Assembly: GCA_964229195.1 (NCBI GenBank)
Contig: CAXRAX010000009.1
Location: forward strand, 2,145 to 66,144
Length of the DNA: 64,000 bases
From: Chitinophagaceae bacterium
GTDB taxonomy: Bacteria; Bacteroidota; Bacteroidia; Chitinophagales; Chitinophagaceae
Direction of reading: 5' to 3'
In this document: positions 2,251 to 27,325 of the stretch, piece by piece
Layout of the letters: the number at the start of each line of letters is the position of its first letter
Position numbering within the stretch: position 1 is the first letter of the stretch
Position numbers and translations under genes: made by a program
The notes under the pieces: model-generated
What the model saw: the letters and a program-made list of their open reading frames with translations, nothing else
The model's database searches: none
What the model was told of the DNA's origin: nothing

Positions 2251-2320
2251 TAGTCCGCCGTCGGCCGACCGCCGTCCGCCCTTGCCAGCCGAAGCCTTGG
2301 CGAAGGCTGGTGACCGCCGT
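2251..2320. repeat. Left arm of the long-range inverted repeat flanking four-helix-bundle gene 1
   Basis: 2280-2320 is the reverse complement of 2796-2836 (40/41 by manual alignment). The arm contains an internal palindrome ccagcc..ggctgg. It also carries GTCCGCCGTCGGCCG (2253-2267), which is shared with 1339-1353. Confidence 0.85.
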
Positions 2321-2341: not shown

Positions 2342-2695
2342 TTAATGAATTGAGGTTTTAAGTTTATAAAGTCTGGCACTCAATTCATGACAGCGGGAAT
2401 ATATTTTCGTAAAGTCACCTTGATCGATAATGCTTCGTTTTTTTGCCAAGTAAATACAAGCTACTACTTCAATATTCGAACGGATGGCTATTCCCAGAAA
2501 ACGTTTGAATTCTGCATTCGATTGCCCTGTAGAGCCCTCTGCGATATTCAACGATACAGAATCAGCCGCACGCTTGATCTGAGAGGTTAAAATAAAGATT
2601 TCTGCCTTTGGAAATTGTTTTGTTACCTCATGAACGGTCATCGACAAATCAACAGCCAACTGCCAAACCTGTAACTTTTCAAATTTGAATTGCAT
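2342..2695 (-). CDS. Four-helix-bundle protein (23S rRNA intervening-sequence protein / Avd-like family)
   Basis: 117 aa. FEKLQVWQLAVDL...QIKRAADSVSLNIAEGS...EFKRFLGIAIRSNIEV is the signature I recognise for the TIGR02436/PF05635-type family. Confidence 0.85.
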   Translation of the reverse strand: MQFKFEKLQVWQLAVDLSMTVHEVTKQFPKAEIFILTSQIKRAADSVSLNIAEGSTGQSNAEFKRFLGIAIRSNIEVVACIYLAKKRSIIDQGDFTKIYSRCHELSARLYKLKTSIH

Positions 2696-4210: not shown

Positions 4211-7200
4211 TTAATGATTTTCTTCCGCATCGATGACCAGCAATCCGTGGCTGTGTCCATGGTCGCTGCAGGTATGCATCAGTTGATAAGAGGGTTGAGC
4301 CGGTATCGTGGGCATGCCACTTCTTTTCTCGCCGTTCATTTTCCGCACCAGACGCAAGCGCTCTGCATCCACCTCTTTTTGCATCTGCTCGTCCTTGGCC
4401 CGGTCGTAATAAACCGTTCCATCCACGATGGTGTAAAGGGACTTGGCATAAATGCTCAGCGGGTGATCGCTCCACAGCACCACATCCGCATCCTGTCCGG
4501 GCTTCAGGCTGCCGACCTTTTCCTCAACATGCAACATTATAGCCGGGTTTAAGGTCACCATCTTCAAGGCCTCCTCTTCCGTTACGCCACCATACTTCAC
4601 GATCTTGGCGGCTTCCTGGTTGAGGCGACGTGCCATTTCAGCATCATCACTGTTAATGGCAACGGTGAGTCCCACTTTCTGCATGATGGCGGCATTATAC
4701 GGAATGGCATCCTCCACTTCCATCTTGTAAGCCCACCAGTCAGAGAAAGTAGATACATAAGATCCGTGCTTCAGCATTTTATCCGCCACTTTATATCCTT
4801 CCAGAATATGTGTGAACGTATTGACCGTGTAGCCCATCTGTTCAGCCACTTTCATGGCGCCGTTGATCTCGCTTTGCACGTAAGAGTGACAAGTGATGAA
4901 ACGCTTCTTCTCGAGGATCTCCACGAGTGCATCCAGTTCCAGGTCGCGGCGAGGCGCCGTACCCGTAAATCCTTTCTTGCCTTTGTTCGCTTCATATTCC
5001 TTCCATGCCCGCTGATAATCTTTGGCACGGGTAAAGGCATCCACCAATACTTGCTCTACGCCCATGCGCGTATCGGGATAGCGATTGTTTCCGAGGGGGG
5101 CGGAGGAACGTTTTACGTTCTCACCGAGGGCGAACTTGATCTGTCCGGGCCAGCCGCGGAATTTCAAATCCTCATCATTGCCACCCCAGCGAAGCTTGAG
5201 CAGTTGGGTTTGTCCGCCAATGACATTCGCCGAACCATGCAGGATATGTGAGGAAGTGACGCCGCCACTGAGCTGGCGGTAAATATTCACGTCGTCCGGA
5301 TTCAGGTTATCTCCGATGCGTACTTCGGAGGTTACGGATTGTCCGCCTTCATTGATCGAAGCCGCCGCAATATGCGAGTGCTCATCGATGATACCGGCGG
5401 TTACATGTTTTCCGGTTCCATCGATTACTCGGGCGGTGGGGTCTGAAAGATTCTTCCCTACTGCGGCGATTTTGCCGTTTTTAATAAGTACGTCGGATTC
5501 TTTTAGTATGCCTTCTTTTTCGTTGGTCCACACCGTTGCGTTCTTTATGAGTATGGTCTCCGATTGCGGACGCTCATTTTCTTTCCATCCGAAAGGAAGC
5601 AAGGGATAGGTAACCGAACCCAGTACGGGCGGATCTTTTTTCTTGACGCTGTCGGCTTTGAATTCACCGGCCTTGACCAGCACGGCGGTCCAGCTCAGCG
5701 GATTACCCAATGAATCCGTTCCGGTTCCGTTCCAGCTGCTGCCGTTGACGAGTCCGCTAAGACGAGTAGCCGTCACCGGCAAGGGCTCCGTCCCGGAGGT
5801 CATCATACCTCTTCCGCCAAAACCGCCCATCGGACGACGGCTCGTATCAGCGCCCGGGGCTCCTCCCCCGCGAACGCGCTTGGCCGCAGGAGCAAAGCTT
5901 AATTTGATTTGCTTGCCATCAACTGTAAGTTTTGATTGCAGCGTATCCTTCGCAAATAGCGAAGTTGCTCCGCCGGCTTTTACCTCTAGGGTGTATTGTT
6001 CGGTGCCGCCCGGACCGTTTACCGATAACGTGTATGTGCCATTAATGGCGCCGGCATCTTCCTTGATGGTGTATTTGATGCCCTGCACCCAGTTCTGGAG
6101 CAGGGTTGATTTTTCCTGGAACATCGGCCCGCTCATCACCAAGAAATTCGCCAGTTTACCCGCTTCCAAACTGCCGATCATATCGGCTACGCCCAGTGCC
6201 TTTGCCGGATTCAGTGTCAGTGCCTCCATGGCAGCTTTTTCGGAGAGTCCGTACTCCATCGACTTTTTCAAAGCGGAAGCGAATTGAGAAACGGATTTCA
6301 GATCGGCCGTAGTGAGACAGAAAGGAATACCTGCTTTCTCGAAAGAGGCAGCTAAGGTGGGGGCCAGCTCCCAATGTTTCATATCGCCCAAAGACACGAA
6401 ACGGGCATCATTGGGATCTTCGACATCTTGTGCCAAGGGAAAATTGAGGGGGAGAATAAAAGTAGCGTTGGTGGATTTCATCTCCCGGATGCGCTGGTAC
6501 TCGTTTTGTCCGGCTTTGATGATGTATTGCACCCCGAATTCATCGCCGATGCGATCGGCCCGCAGGTCGTTCCATTTATCGCCGGCCTCAAACACTTGAG
6601 GCAGCGAACGATTCTCATTGAAAGCTTTCAGGCTGAGGTTGGTGCCTTCCGCCGCGGGCTTGTTCTTATACCAATCGGCATCGAGATAGGTCTGACGCAA
6701 CAACGAAATATTACCCATCATGGAGCTGGGATAACTCTGCGTGGAAGTTCCTTTATTGAAAGAATAGTGAGCAGAAGCTTTTTCGCGTAAAATGACGAGG
6801 TTTTCTTTTTCCGAGGCGAGGGTGACAAGTGTACCGGTGCCACGGGCAATACCATCTCGCACGTGTGTAAGCACAGTGCCGAATCCGGCCTCGCGCATGG
6901 ATTTAGCCTGAGATTCGTTGACCGAGAAGGAGGCGTAGGCGTTTACTTCGGGACGAATGGCTTGGTTCCATCCAAAGGGACCTTTGGTCGCCGTTTCCAA
7001 TTGTGCGGGCTGGGCAAAATTAAATCCGCCGCGACCGGTATTCTGTTGCGCGGGCATGCCATAATCGGCATATAGGTCTACGAATGATGGGTAAATGAAT
7101 TTATTGGTGCAATCGATCTCCACGGCGCCGACGGGCACGGGAAGTCCGGCACCCACGGCCACGATCTTTCCATCGCGCACCACGAGGGTGGCATTTTGGA

Positions 7201-24162: not shown

Positions 24163-24786
24163 TTATTTTTTCGCAGCCGGGGCAGCAGCGGCGGCGGCCG
24201 GAGCGGCAGCAGCGGCCGGGGCGGCGGCTTCTTCTTGTTTGAGCTGACGGGTCAGAACGACGGAGGCGATGGGGATGCGGGGAGAGTTGAGGATCTCATA
24301 GTTCTCCACCTGTACATCTTCTACGCGGATGTTGCCGTTCAGTTCCAGGTTATCGATGGCGACATCGATCTTTTCCCGGAGGAATTTGGGGTAGGTTTTC
24401 ACCTTGAGGGACTTCATCTTGGTGATGAGTTTTCCGCCGTCTTTTACGCCTTTGGAGGCGCCGGTGAAGTGAAGGGGAATGTCGGCTACGACTTTCTTGT
24501 CCTCCACGAGTTCCAGCAGGTCGATGTGGGTGAGTGTGTCGGTCACCTTGTCGAATTGCAGGTCCTTCATGATGGTCCGATAGGTTTGTCCGTCTACTTT
24601 CACTTCGGCGATCTGGAAGTTGGGGGTGTAGACCAACTTTTTGAATGCGGCGGCCGGTGCGTGAAAATGGACCTCTTTTGCACCCCCGTAAATTACACCG
24701 GGCACCAGGTCCTGAGAGCGGAGTTGACGGGTGGCTGACTTGCCAAATCCGGTCCTCAGTTGTCCTTCGATGGTAATCGTGTTCAT
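24163..24786 (-). CDS. rplY: 50S ribosomal protein L25 / general stress protein Ctc
   Basis: MNTITIEGQLRTGFGKSATRQLRSQDLVPGVIYG, with an Ala/Pro-rich C-terminal tail. Confidence 0.9.
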   Translation of the reverse strand: MNTITIEGQLRTGFGKSATRQLRSQDLVPGVIYGGAKEVHFHAPAAAFKKLVYTPNFQIAEVKVDGQTYRTIMKDLQFDKVTDTLTHIDLLELVEDKKVVADIPLHFTGASKGVKDGGKLITKMKSLKVKTYPKFLREKIDVAIDNLELNGNIRVEDVQVENYEILNSPRIPIASVVLTRQLKQEEAAAPAAAAAPAAAAAAPAAKK

Positions 24787-25782: not shown

Positions 25783-26493
25783 ATGTATTTGCTTGGCATA
25801 AGGCCTGTGCATAACGATTTGTGGCATGGGCAAGGGCCGTTGGCGGATGTATACTTGGGGATGATGGAAATGGAAAAACTGGGGTTGGGGGCCGATGGTT
25901 TGGCTTCTACCCCGCAATTATTGGAGCGGATCCTGGGCACCTCGAAGGGAGCTCAGAAATTATGGGAGTTCGTGGAGGGCGATCTGGGCCGGTTGGCCAC
26001 GATGGACCCGGAGGAGCTCATGCAGGTGCGGGGGTTGGGAGGAGAGCGGGCGGGGAGGTTATTGGCGGCCTGGGAGTTGGGGCGCCGGTTATCAACTTTT
26101 CGGGCGGGGCAGGTGCGGACCCCGCTGCAGTCTTCCTCGGAGGCTGCCCGGTACTTGCAGGCGCAGATCGGGTATTTGGATCACGAGGTGTTTTGTGTGC
26201 TGTATTTGAATCGGGCACTTCGGCTGATCCGGTTGGAGCGGGTGAGTCAGGGCGGCATTACGGGTACGGTGGCCGATCCGCGGATCATTTTTCGAAGGGC
26301 TTTATCGCTTCGGGCGGTGAGTTTGATCTTGGGTCACAATCACCCCTCGGGGGCCTTGCATCCCAGTGACGCCGACCGCGAACTCACCGAGAAGATCCGC
26401 CGCGCGGCGGAGTATTTTGATATGACCGTACACGATCATTTGATCGTGAGTGGGGAGGGGTATTACAGTTTTGCGGACGAGGGAATACTATAG
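25783..26493 (+). CDS. radC: RadC-family JAB/MPN domain protein
   Basis: JAMM motif LGHNHPSGALHPSDADRELT and HhH-like LMQVRGLGGERAGRLLAAWELGRR. The start is uncertain (alternative Met at 25861). Confidence 0.85.
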   Translation: MYLLGIRPVHNDLWHGQGPLADVYLGMMEMEKLGLGADGLASTPQLLERILGTSKGAQKLWEFVEGDLGRLATMDPEELMQVRGLGGERAGRLLAAWELGRRLSTFRAGQVRTPLQSSSEAARYLQAQIGYLDHEVFCVLYLNRALRLIRLERVSQGGITGTVADPRIIFRRALSLRAVSLILGHNHPSGALHPSDADRELTEKIRRAAEYFDMTVHDHLIVSGEGYYSFADEGIL

Positions 26494-26535
26494 TTTGAAT
26501 AGTTTGAGAAGTTTGAAGAGTTTAAAAGTTAAAAA
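26494..26535. repeat. Left arm of the inverted repeat flanking four-helix-bundle gene 2 (degenerate GTTTGARRA tandem units)
   Basis: agtttgaat agtttgagaa gtttgaagag tttaaaagtt, starting immediately after the radC TAG. 26501-26515 is perfectly complementary to 26941-26955. Confidence 0.8.
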
Positions 26536-26543
26536 GCGATCAT

Positions 26544-26933
26544 ATGGGCACGATCAGAGAGTTGGAGGAATTGAAAGTCTGGCAGAAAGCAAGGACATTG
26601 AATAAAAGAGTTTTTGAATTGACTGGATTACCGGTTTTCAAATATGAGTTTTCGTTACGAGAGCAGATGCGCCGTTCGGCGGGCTCCGTGATGGATAATA
26701 TTGCGGAGGGATTTGGCCGGATGGGCAATCGAGAGTTTATCAATTTTTTGCTGATTGCCCATGGGTCATTGATGGAGGTTCGCTCACAGCTAAACCGCTG
26801 CCATGACCAAGCCTTCATTTCACCAGTCACACACGATGAAATAATGCCGCTAACCCGAGAAATTGGACGAATGATCTACAGCATGATACAATACCTCAAA
26901 AAATCAGAAAAAACCGGTCAGCGATTTCGCTAA
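26544..26933 (+). CDS. Four-helix-bundle protein (23S rRNA intervening-sequence protein / Avd-like family), second copy
   Basis: 129 aa. LKVWQKARTL...QMRRSAGSVMDNIAEG...EFINFLLIAHGSLMEV is the same signature as 2342-2695. Confidence 0.85.
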   Translation: MGTIRELEELKVWQKARTLNKRVFELTGLPVFKYEFSLREQMRRSAGSVMDNIAEGFGRMGNREFINFLLIAHGSLMEVRSQLNRCHDQAFISPVTHDEIMPLTREIGRMIYSMIQYLKKSEKTGQRFR

Positions 26934-26987
26934 AAACTCCCAAACTTCTCAAACTCCCAAACTCTCAAACTCCCAAACTCTCAAACT
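26934..26987. repeat. Right arm of the inverted repeat flanking four-helix-bundle gene 2
   Basis: It begins right after the TAA stop codon. It contains the exact 16-nt tandem AAACTCCCAAACTCTC twice (26951-26966, 26967-26982), and CAAACTTCTCAAACT is complementary to the left arm. Confidence 0.8.
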
Positions 26988-27020
26988 GGCGCAGGCGCAG
27001 CCTGCGCCTACGCCTGCGCG
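26988..27020. terminator. GC-rich multi-register palindrome between convergent genes (possible bidirectional terminator or REP-like element)
   Basis: GCGCAGGCG 26989-26997 pairs with CGCCTGCGC 27011-27019. An alternative inner pairing is GCGCAG/CTGCGC. There is no T-run, and it overlaps the last codons of the DUF3467 gene. Confidence 0.4.
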
Positions 27021-27325
27021 GTCGGTCCTCCAAAATTCAACGGCAACTGTATCTCTTCAATATCCTGTATCGGTCCGTGTGCAGATTCAAACTTCTGGAT
27101 GTTCTCCGTGAGTGCCCGCATGAGTCGCTTGGCGTGCTGGGGGGTAAGGATGAGGCGCGATTTAACCTTACTCTTGGGCGTACCGGGCATCACGTTCACA
27201 AAATCGATCACGAACTCGGCATGCGAATGAGTGATGATGGCCAAGTTGGCATATTGTCCTTCGGCGACCTCCTCGGAGATCTCGATGTTCAACTGATTGG
27301 GGGCAGGGGGATTGTTCTCTTGCAT
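27008..27325 (-). CDS. DUF3467 domain-containing protein
   Basis: 105 aa. NLAIITHSHAEFVIDFVNVMPGTPKSKVKSRLILTPQHAKRL matches my memory of the DUF3467 family. Confidence 0.75.
   Translation of the reverse strand: MQENNPPAPNQLNIEISEEVAEGQYANLAIITHSHAEFVIDFVNVMPGTPKSKVKSRLILTPQHAKRLMRALTENIQKFESAHGPIQDIEEIQLPLNFGGPTAQA

Follow-up and report, generated by a model that had tools for sequence, protein, structure and literature searches.

What does a gene from the family of 23S rRNA intervening-sequence proteins do between two protein-coding genes, and why should it be enclosed there by two short-unit repeat arrays that are complementary to each other? The question is raised by a 64,000-nt stretch of DNA from a Chitinophagaceae bacterium (assembly GCA_964229195.1, contig CAXRAX010000009.1, positions 2,145 to 66,144 of the forward strand), hereafter the window, in which a four-helix-bundle (4HB) gene and its flanking arrays, together the cassette, lie between radC and a DUF3467 gene. 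Comparison across Chitinophagaceae indicates that arms and open reading frame (ORF) form one discrete module, which is gained, lost, decayed and swapped as a block at the radC/DUF3467 junction, and that the unit sequence drifts in both arms together. The reading that we favour, with a probability that we put near even, is that of an intervening sequence (IVS)-type cassette outside rRNA: a functional PF05635 gene in the loop of a long hairpin, the arms of which are complementary tandem arrays and whose read-through RNA would be cut by RNase III.

The 5′ arm consists of about four degenerate 9-nt units (TAGTTTGAA TAGTTTGAG AAGTTTGAA GAGTTTAAA AG; 26491-26530, + strand), found both by Tandem Repeats Finder (TRF; 26490-26523, period 9, 3.8 copies) and by the search for repeats and inverted pairs. 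The initial annotation of this stretch had let the arm begin at the base after the radC stop codon; in fact its first unit overlaps that TAG (26491-26493, + strand), the repeat starting at 26491/26492. An A-rich spacer, TAAAAAGCGATCAT (26531-26543, + strand), leads to the start codon of the 4HB gene (26544-26933, + strand; 129 aa; PF05635, TIGR02436), and a similar GTTAAAAAG/GTTAATA stretch before the ATG is kept in the ortholog flanks. The 3′ arm begins, as had been proposed, with the base that follows the TAA stop of the ORF (26931-26933, + strand) and extends over 26934-26987 (+ strand) as 6.6 units of 8 nt (AAACTCYC) that are complements of those in the 5′ arm. TRF reports it at periods 8 and 16, the latter as 3.3 copies of the 16-mer AAACTCCCAAACTCTC, which bears out the 16-nt tandem described initially. 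The inverted-repeat search likewise agrees that 26501-26515 and 26941-26955 are perfect complements over 15 nt and that the other registers between the arms are imperfect (18-29 nt at 72-78%). CAAACT-N2-3-CAAACT occurs seven times in the 64 kb, always within the two arms, where none would be expected. The space from the radC stop to the ORF, and that from the ORF stop to a G/C-rich hairpin just outside the cassette, is filled by the two tandem arrays. This hairpin (GGCGCAGGCGCAG/CTGCGCCTACGCC; 26988-27019, from the inverted-repeat search and without assigned strand) overlaps the last codons and the stop of the DUF3467 gene. It is kept in all orthologous loci as CGGCTCAGGCTACGCCTGAGCCG, and host identity resumes there, at the outer cassette edge; it probably serves both convergent genes as a common terminator.

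The boundaries of the module can be read from two loci in near-identical hosts, L001 and L182, whose flanks are 97-100% identical in the kilobase on each side (100-nt windows). Identity falls to 52-68% over arm, ORF and arm, a stretch that starts some 6 nt ahead of the radC stop and ends with the last 3′ unit, and high identity resumes at AACTCGGCTCAGG (the L182 cassette lies at approximately 1937-2445). The two loci use different arm units, and the divergence is bounded by the outer arm ends in an idiomorph-like pattern. Their 4HB proteins are 53% identical; since synonymous sites are saturated (proportion of synonymous differences, pS, 0.83) and the nonsynonymous proportion (pN) is lower at 0.31, the two alleles are old and not locally hypermutated. 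Such a pattern fits site-specific replacement or a long-maintained polymorphism with flanks homogenised by recombination, and on either reading the arms are part of the cassette, not of the host site. Another pair, L104 and L160, has 79% protein identity, a common 3′ unit and unrelated downstream flanks, consistent with arms that travel with the gene. In the other cassette/empty pairs, whose hosts share no more than 70-80% DNA identity, sharp boundaries were not resolved. Recent transposition was not observed: all contigs for the proteins P0005, P0019 and P0073 represent the same junction, and protein pairs of at least 80% identity have homologous flanks wherever these are comparable, different contexts appearing only below about 80%. 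No target-site duplication is visible at the cassette boundaries.

The closest homologs of the window protein (48-67% identity) all lie at the radC/DUF3467 junction. In these positional orthologs complementary arrays again begin at the radC TAG, and the unit varies by lineage: TTTGGGCAG in L001-L013 and L015, TTCAGCG in L182-L190, TTCTTAG in L191-L200 and L090, TTGAGGG in L085, and TTCGGAG/TTCAGCG both in L094 and in the closest relative, L014. Each change between TTTGAGAAG, TTTGGGCAG, TTCAGCG, TTCTTAG and TTGAGGG comes with a matching 3′ unit; as the 3′ arm always carries the matching complement, complementarity is conserved while sequence turns over. Co-variation of the arms across orthologs, which the initial annotation had named as a check, is thus what these loci display, and so is variation in unit number between strains, seen among contigs that encode an identical protein: left arms of 2-4 units and right arms of 4-8 for P0005, left arms of 2-4 for P0019, and 4 or 5 units for P0073. 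Since both arms are built as tandem arrays, slippage that adds or removes units alters arm length and leaves pairing intact. Arms can be unequal, as in L085, with 13 copies of TTGAGGG upstream and about four of CCCTCAA downstream in gene orientation. The contigs of L014, L094, L103 and L143 end inside the 3′ array, and arrays of this kind appear to break short-read assemblies.

A scan of the junction with one genome per species that has DUF3467 gave 80 loci, about 50 of which keep radC next to DUF3467. The cassette-free junctions that the initial annotation had asked about do exist, with only 0-30 nt between the stop codons in some 20 related genomes. Nine genomes other than those of the window's own lineage have a 4HB gene or pseudogene at the site, from two distinct subfamilies, one hb1-like and the other of the type MGxYKDLLAYKKGY...RRRRYKDYFISKLND. 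The pseudogenes are those of L038 and L053, and a search of the intermediate-sized gaps for 4HB coding remnants (tblastn and the family hidden Markov model) returned these two and none in L021, L041 or L093. Short gaps in L024, L054, L083 and L086 hold ORF-less tandem-unit hairpins, and the L080 gap holds a one-sided array, ATCAACC x8, which abuts the radC stop and has neither a complementary partner nor an ORF. On a neighbour-joining tree of RadC and DUF3467 these junction states are interleaved, which argues for repeated gain, loss or replacement at one site. The 202-nt gap of L041 holds another insertion, with a terminal inverted repeat of about 30 nt (CCCCCTGTCCCCCTAAAGGGG...); the repeat is not composed of tandem units, and the insertion looks like a miniature inverted-repeat transposable element (MITE).

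That arm complementarity extends beyond this junction is indicated by a sample of 80 metagenomic loci with hb1-like proteins (40-56% identity), 73 of them with usable flanks, whose 100-nt flanks were compared with those of 28 control genes from the same loci and with shuffles. The two flanks share a median of 13 reverse-complement 6-mers (n = 73), as against 3 in controls (n = 28) and 4.4 in shuffles, and at least eight are shared in 49 of the 73 loci versus 5 of the 28 controls (Fisher p 1.2e-5). One or both flanks hold a periodic array in 56/73 loci and in at most 4/28 controls, the period being 7 in 27 of the 37 periodic 5′ arms and in 31 of the 44 periodic 3′ arms. Complementarity is locus-specific: a 5′ arm shares a median of 11 7-mers with its own 3′ arm and none with those of other loci (91 loci), and none of 5000 permutations reached the observed own-partner sum. 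Moreover, eight of the twelve strict arrays in 388 kb of Chitinophagaceae DNA that had been gathered without reference to 4HB adjoin a 4HB gene. A chance origin of the association between gene and arrays is excluded. The earlier statement that architecture and not arm sequence is conserved is borne out here, complementary locus-specific arrays flanking most relatives. Duplex energies of the 90-nt flanks (RNAduplex) have a median of -34.3 kcal/mol versus -28.4 kcal/mol in controls, with z < -3 at 34 of the 73 loci; only 12 of the 73 fall below the control 5th percentile, and because the control distribution was too broad this test was replaced by k-mer complementarity. A universal GT(T/C)NNNN core with polarity (GTT-rich 5′ arms, AAC-rich 3′ arms; 26 loci vs 2) was considered and holds for the hb1-like subfamily only, since cyanobacterial and Xanthomonas units depart from it.

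The arrangement recurs in other phyla. Plasmid 4HB genes of Riemerella, Nostoc (three strains) and Geminocystis have complementary heptamer arrays on both sides, with units such as TAGGGAG/TCCCTAC and GGGAACA/TGTTCCC, and some of these cassettes lie inside operons, between ribonucleotide reductase subunits or between cas6 and cas4. In Xanthomonas arboricola (L201, 1489-1932) an XCC0516-like gene stands between accB and accC, an order also seen in X. sacchari (L202-L204). Its arrays are GGGAATC x4.4 from the accB stop and CCCATTC x4.3 ending at the accC start, so that the gaps to accB and accC consist almost wholly of heptamers, and the annotated 4HB start codon falls inside the 5′ array. Single-gene cassettes inserted at gene ends, as had been proposed for the window, are supported more broadly than within it.

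STRR heptamers of Calothrix were reportedly described by Mazel et al. in 1990. The repeat of the X. arboricola cassette, GGGAATC, is itself a published orphan heptamer, as is the GGGGA(C/T)T of Nostoc (Rehm et al. 2015, PMC4692102). According to that study GGGAATC has about 186 sites per Xanthomonas genome, including 70-75 convergent pairs; the arrays vary in unit number, with four units preferred, lie close to stop codons and are without a known function. Many bacterial genomes are enriched in heptameric repeats, for which an origin by polymerase slippage was proposed (PMC4692102). Rehm et al. make no mention of an S23/4HB gene (PMC4692102), and in the open-access literature we found no published link between the 4HB/S23p gene family and heptamer repeats. 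As far as we searched that literature, the systematic embedding of the 4HB family in complementary short-unit arrays, published orphan heptamers included, is unreported.

The description of the cassette as IVS-like gains from a comparison with the rRNA IVS of Coxiella burnetii, which carries an S23p ORF and a 28-bp terminal stem (PMC4990558). Two to three tandem GACAGAT heptamers, in strain-variable number, lie upstream of its S23p start, and RNase III makes the 5′ cut at the first heptamer repeat (PMC4990558); variable tandem heptamers are thus found at an RNase III-cut stem. Excision of the IVS loop by RNase III was shown in Coxiella, Salmonella and Leptospira (PMC4990558). Genes annotated 23S_rRNA_IVP are also known from inside cas operons (PMC3936711) and, in the literature, from rRNA insertions of candidate phyla radiation (CPR) bacteria.

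A second cassette of the window, copy 1 (2251-2850, - strand), has a 4HB ORF at 2342-2695 (- strand; PF05635, E 5.3e-34) and arms at 2755-2850 and 2251-2320 (- strand) that contain 7-nt GTCCGCC/GCGGACG units (TRF). It lies between the stop (2853) of an amidohydrolase-like gene and the start (2223) of an ion-channel gene, and its arms pair over about 55 bp in the predicted fold (z -9.2). The A/T-rich arms at radC are indeed unrelated in sequence to these G/C-rich ones, as had been observed; both nonetheless contain tandem units. About 0.9 kb from copy 1, an ORF-less hairpin of the same unit type (1325-1446, unstranded; GTCCGCC/TCAGCGGAC units; TRF 1332-1365 and 1396-1426; fold z -5.6) occupies precisely the interval from the SecA stop to the stop of the convergent ion-channel gene. 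L090 offers a parallel at 5094-5200, where an ORF-less TTCTTAG/CTAAGAA hairpin starts at the TAG stop of a PRPP synthase gene; a 4HB cassette with arms of the TTCTTAG unit lies 1.8 kb away. No gene-less hairpin of the AGTTTG type was found in the 64-kb window. The possibility, raised initially, that the units are a common microsatellite unlinked to the gene holds in one part and fails in the other: arrays also occur without a gene (1325-1446, L090 5094-5200 and the Xanthomonas sites, PMC4692102), and the association is not due to chance. The arrays are a wider repeat class with which the 4HB gene is tightly associated.

The protein itself is a clear family member, matching PF05635 (E 2.4e-32, 111.7 bits vs a cut-off of 33.8) and TIGR02436 (E 7.5e-31, 106.6 bits vs a cut-off of 24). 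By sequence only, a profile of the protein and its relatives matches the structures 2GSC (Xanthomonas XCC0516; E 8.3e-21) and 2RLD (E 9.2e-18). The family motif GxxRxxxSxxxNxxE (Lin et al. 2006, quoted in PMC3936711) is present as RRSAGSVMDNIAEG, with S48, V49, N52 and E55 invariant in the family alignment, and the two 4HB proteins of the window are 32% identical. The family has a great many members: an 80-residue XCC0516 fragment used as query returned at least 7784 proteins at E <=1e-10 among the 8000 candidates scored. Across allele pairs pN is 0.10-0.36 and pS 0.67-0.88, and pN so far below pS argues for purifying selection on the gene. The protein diverges faster than its neighbours (66% identity versus 89% and 97%). 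Profile search gave only PF05635 and bAvd, and no recognisable catalytic domain. Kinship with Avd, the accessory protein of diversity-generating retroelements (DGRs), is distant (bAvd E 7.8e-4; PHROG 'Avd protein of DGR' E 1.5e-6). Identification as a DGR Avd was rejected: the bAvd score is 20.3 bits against a cut-off of 40, an NCBIfam search of the 4HB protein gave no Avd match, and no reverse transcriptase stands among the neighbours in orthologous loci, which are Pth, L25, Prs, RadC, DUF3467 and SusD. No transposase was found near the cassette in these loci either. An assignment to anti-phage defence was likewise discarded, no PADLOC family matching at E up to 0.01.

As for the surroundings in the window, radC (25783-26493, + strand; PF04002, E 2.6e-40) is the upstream neighbour and the DUF3467 gene (27008-27325, - strand; PF11950, E 1.2e-30) the convergent downstream one. 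An Rfam scan of the whole window brought no family to threshold, and a scan for intrinsic terminators and sigma-70 promoters around the cassette, made without Bacteroidota promoter types, gave none above shuffle expectation and none at the arms. A GCN-rich tandem repeat at 24173-24228 lies within the 3′ end of the gene for ribosomal protein L25, where it encodes an Ala/Pro-rich tail, and is unrelated to the cassette.

In the IVS-type reading, the cassette would be transcribed by read-through from radC, which is probable given that the interval from the radC stop to the ORF has no evident terminator-like hairpin. The two arrays would then pair into an imperfect double-stranded RNA stem of 35-50 bp; RNase III may cut this stem, by homology with the 23S rRNA IVSs, and the cut would separate the ORF-bearing loop from the host message. 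A loop cut away in this manner would let the element sit at gene ends or inside operons with little harm. Predicted folding agrees in so far as the minimum free energy fold of the whole cassette pairs the arms on both strands (z -3.66 sense and -4.17 antisense, against shuffles) and the arms joined by a short linker reach z -5.2 as RNA and -5.9 as DNA; the arms thus fold better than shuffled controls, a point on which the structural interpretation of the initial annotation could have failed.

Several observations weigh against such RNA-level processing. DNA parameters, and likewise the opposite strand, give an equally good fold. Transition mismatches between the arms, 60 of the G.U type and 100 of the A.C type on the sense strand, do not favour a sense RNA, and duplex energies are no different between sense and antisense (p 0.2); the mismatch imbalance may be explained by 5′ arms that are more degenerate than 3′ arms. 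Complementarity could be kept by template switching or gene conversion instead of selection. Direct instead of inverted arrays are seen in a few relatives (L097, L161 and L180, the last being a Pseudanabaena plasmid locus between cas6 and cas4 with direct AAAAGCT x14 and AAAAGCC x9), others have one-sided arrays, and about a quarter of the loci have weak arms or none. Finally, cleavage inside an mRNA operon could be harmful, not neutral.

The main rival to the IVS-type reading places the hairpin at the DNA level, in the manner of REPINs and their RAYTs (repetitive extragenic palindrome, REP, doublets and REP-associated tyrosine transposases) or of MITEs. Here the arrays would form single-stranded DNA hairpins or cruciforms as a substrate for spread, excision and recombination, the 4HB protein would be the factor of the element itself that binds nucleic acid, a part comparable to that of Avd beside the DGR reverse transcriptase, and ORF-less hairpins would be non-autonomous derivatives. 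We judge this unlikely, if far from negligible. It would account for the hairpins of the same unit that lie 0.9-1.8 kb from cassettes (1325-1446 beside copy 1; L090 5094-5200), for the roughly 186 GGGAATC arrays in Xanthomonas (PMC4692102), the one Xanthomonas 4HB locus examined being flanked by GGGAATC, and for sharp module boundaries with patchy gain, loss and replacement; the missing wobble signal on the sense strand and the equally good DNA fold also suit it. It is at odds with a protein that is a small helical bundle without a recognisable catalytic domain, with the lack of recent transposition among contigs whose proteins are identical or at least 80% identical, and with the lack of a visible target-site duplication, and the arm sequences differ between copies, unlike ends recognised by a transposase.

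An improbable alternative takes the arrays as binding sites of a ring-shaped 4HB oligomer, one subunit per unit as in the trp RNA-binding attenuation protein (TRAP), for autoregulation or packaging of its own transcript, with arm complementarity secondary. XCC0516 is described as a toroidal homopentamer (PMC4990558), and 2GSC (XCC0516) and 2RLD were each deposited with five chains; arrays commonly have 4-6 units, next to the four-unit preference of Rehm et al. (PMC4692102), and the 4HB protein diverges faster than its neighbours alongside unit turnover. Array size does not fit a ring so well, however, as arrays range from 2 to at least 14 units and arms are often very unequal (L085, 13 vs 4). 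Repeat binding also leaves the reverse-complement second array unexplained, and the co-divergence of protein and unit is equally expected from vertical descent.

That the arms are an ordinary slippage-prone microsatellite and a bidirectional terminator beside the gene, without functional link, is highly implausible: heptameric repeats are common in bacterial genomes with slippage as a proposed origin (PMC4692102), and the cassette does lie between convergent genes, where terminators are expected, but the CAAACT motif is found nowhere else in the 64 kb, 8/12 strict arrays in the 388 kb adjoin a 4HB gene, the association spans three phyla with locus-specific complementarity, and the terminator scan is blank at the arms.

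A broader proposition, to which we give some credence while inclining against it, is that 4HB proteins and short-unit, mostly heptamer, hairpins (STRR-type, GGGAATC and the window arrays) may constitute one widespread element system. The gene-bearing hairpin would be its complete form, the rRNA IVS one insertion context, and gene-less hairpins derivatives, with each protein acting on its own unit type as a RAYT does on its REPIN. The S23p/IVS family is very large and has solved structures, and its function has been unexplained for about 30 years; the heptameric repeats of Xanthomonas and cyanobacteria have been described and are likewise unexplained. Arrays in three phyla, a discrete module, turnover at a fixed site and the heptamer stem of Coxiella join these two orphan observations into one testable system. 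On the practical side, the arrays coincide with several metagenome contig ends and can pass for microsatellite markers, and accBC, ribonucleotide reductase and cas are among the operons in which cassettes occur.

Compared with known systems, a MITE or insertion sequence was rejected as an identity for the cassette, on account of its locus-specific arms, the absence of a visible target-site duplication and the absence of a transposase nearby. With the Avd proteins of DGRs, basic oligomers that bind nucleic acid and polymerase, the 4HB protein shares the fold as a distant homolog; unlike at a DGR, there is no reverse transcriptase and there are no template or variable repeats nearby. REP/REPIN and RAYT systems are similar in that a single gene lies between inverted repeat copies; their repeat also occurs as gene-less intergenic hairpins, to which the two hairpins near cassettes (1325-1446 and L090 5094-5200) may correspond, and in those systems several repeat-and-gene families can coexist in one genome. 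They differ in that a RAYT is a Y1 (IS200/IS605-like) transposase, whereas the 4HB protein has no catalytic signature, and in that REPs are single palindromes while the arms of the window cassette are tandem arrays. The heptameric repeats of Rehm et al. and of the STRR type resemble the arms as intergenic tandem units that lie next to stop codons, vary in copy number and often form convergent pairs with the capacity for stem-loops, and the arrays of the Xanthomonas 4HB gene are the published GGGAATC repeat itself. Against their period of about 7 nt the units of the window cassette have 8-9 nt, those of copy 1 and most relatives 7 nt; unlike the Rehm repeats, which were treated as G-quadruplex-forming, the units at radC are A/T-rich and without quadruplex potential. 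There remain the 23S rRNA IVSs with an S23p/PF05635 ORF, known from Leptospira, Coxiella burnetii, Xanthomonas and Brucella, sporadically distributed and regarded as selfish. Unlike these, the window cassette is not in helix 9, 25 or 45 of a 23S rRNA gene, its flanks being radC and DUF3467, and its arms are longer arrays of 4-7 units of 8-9 nt; because it stands at the ends of protein-coding genes, any cleavage would act on mRNA. Like these, it carries a homologous ORF in the loop of a stem, here a predicted fold, formed from terminal complementary sequences, and like the Coxiella IVS it has a stem region built of tandem units whose number varies between strains.

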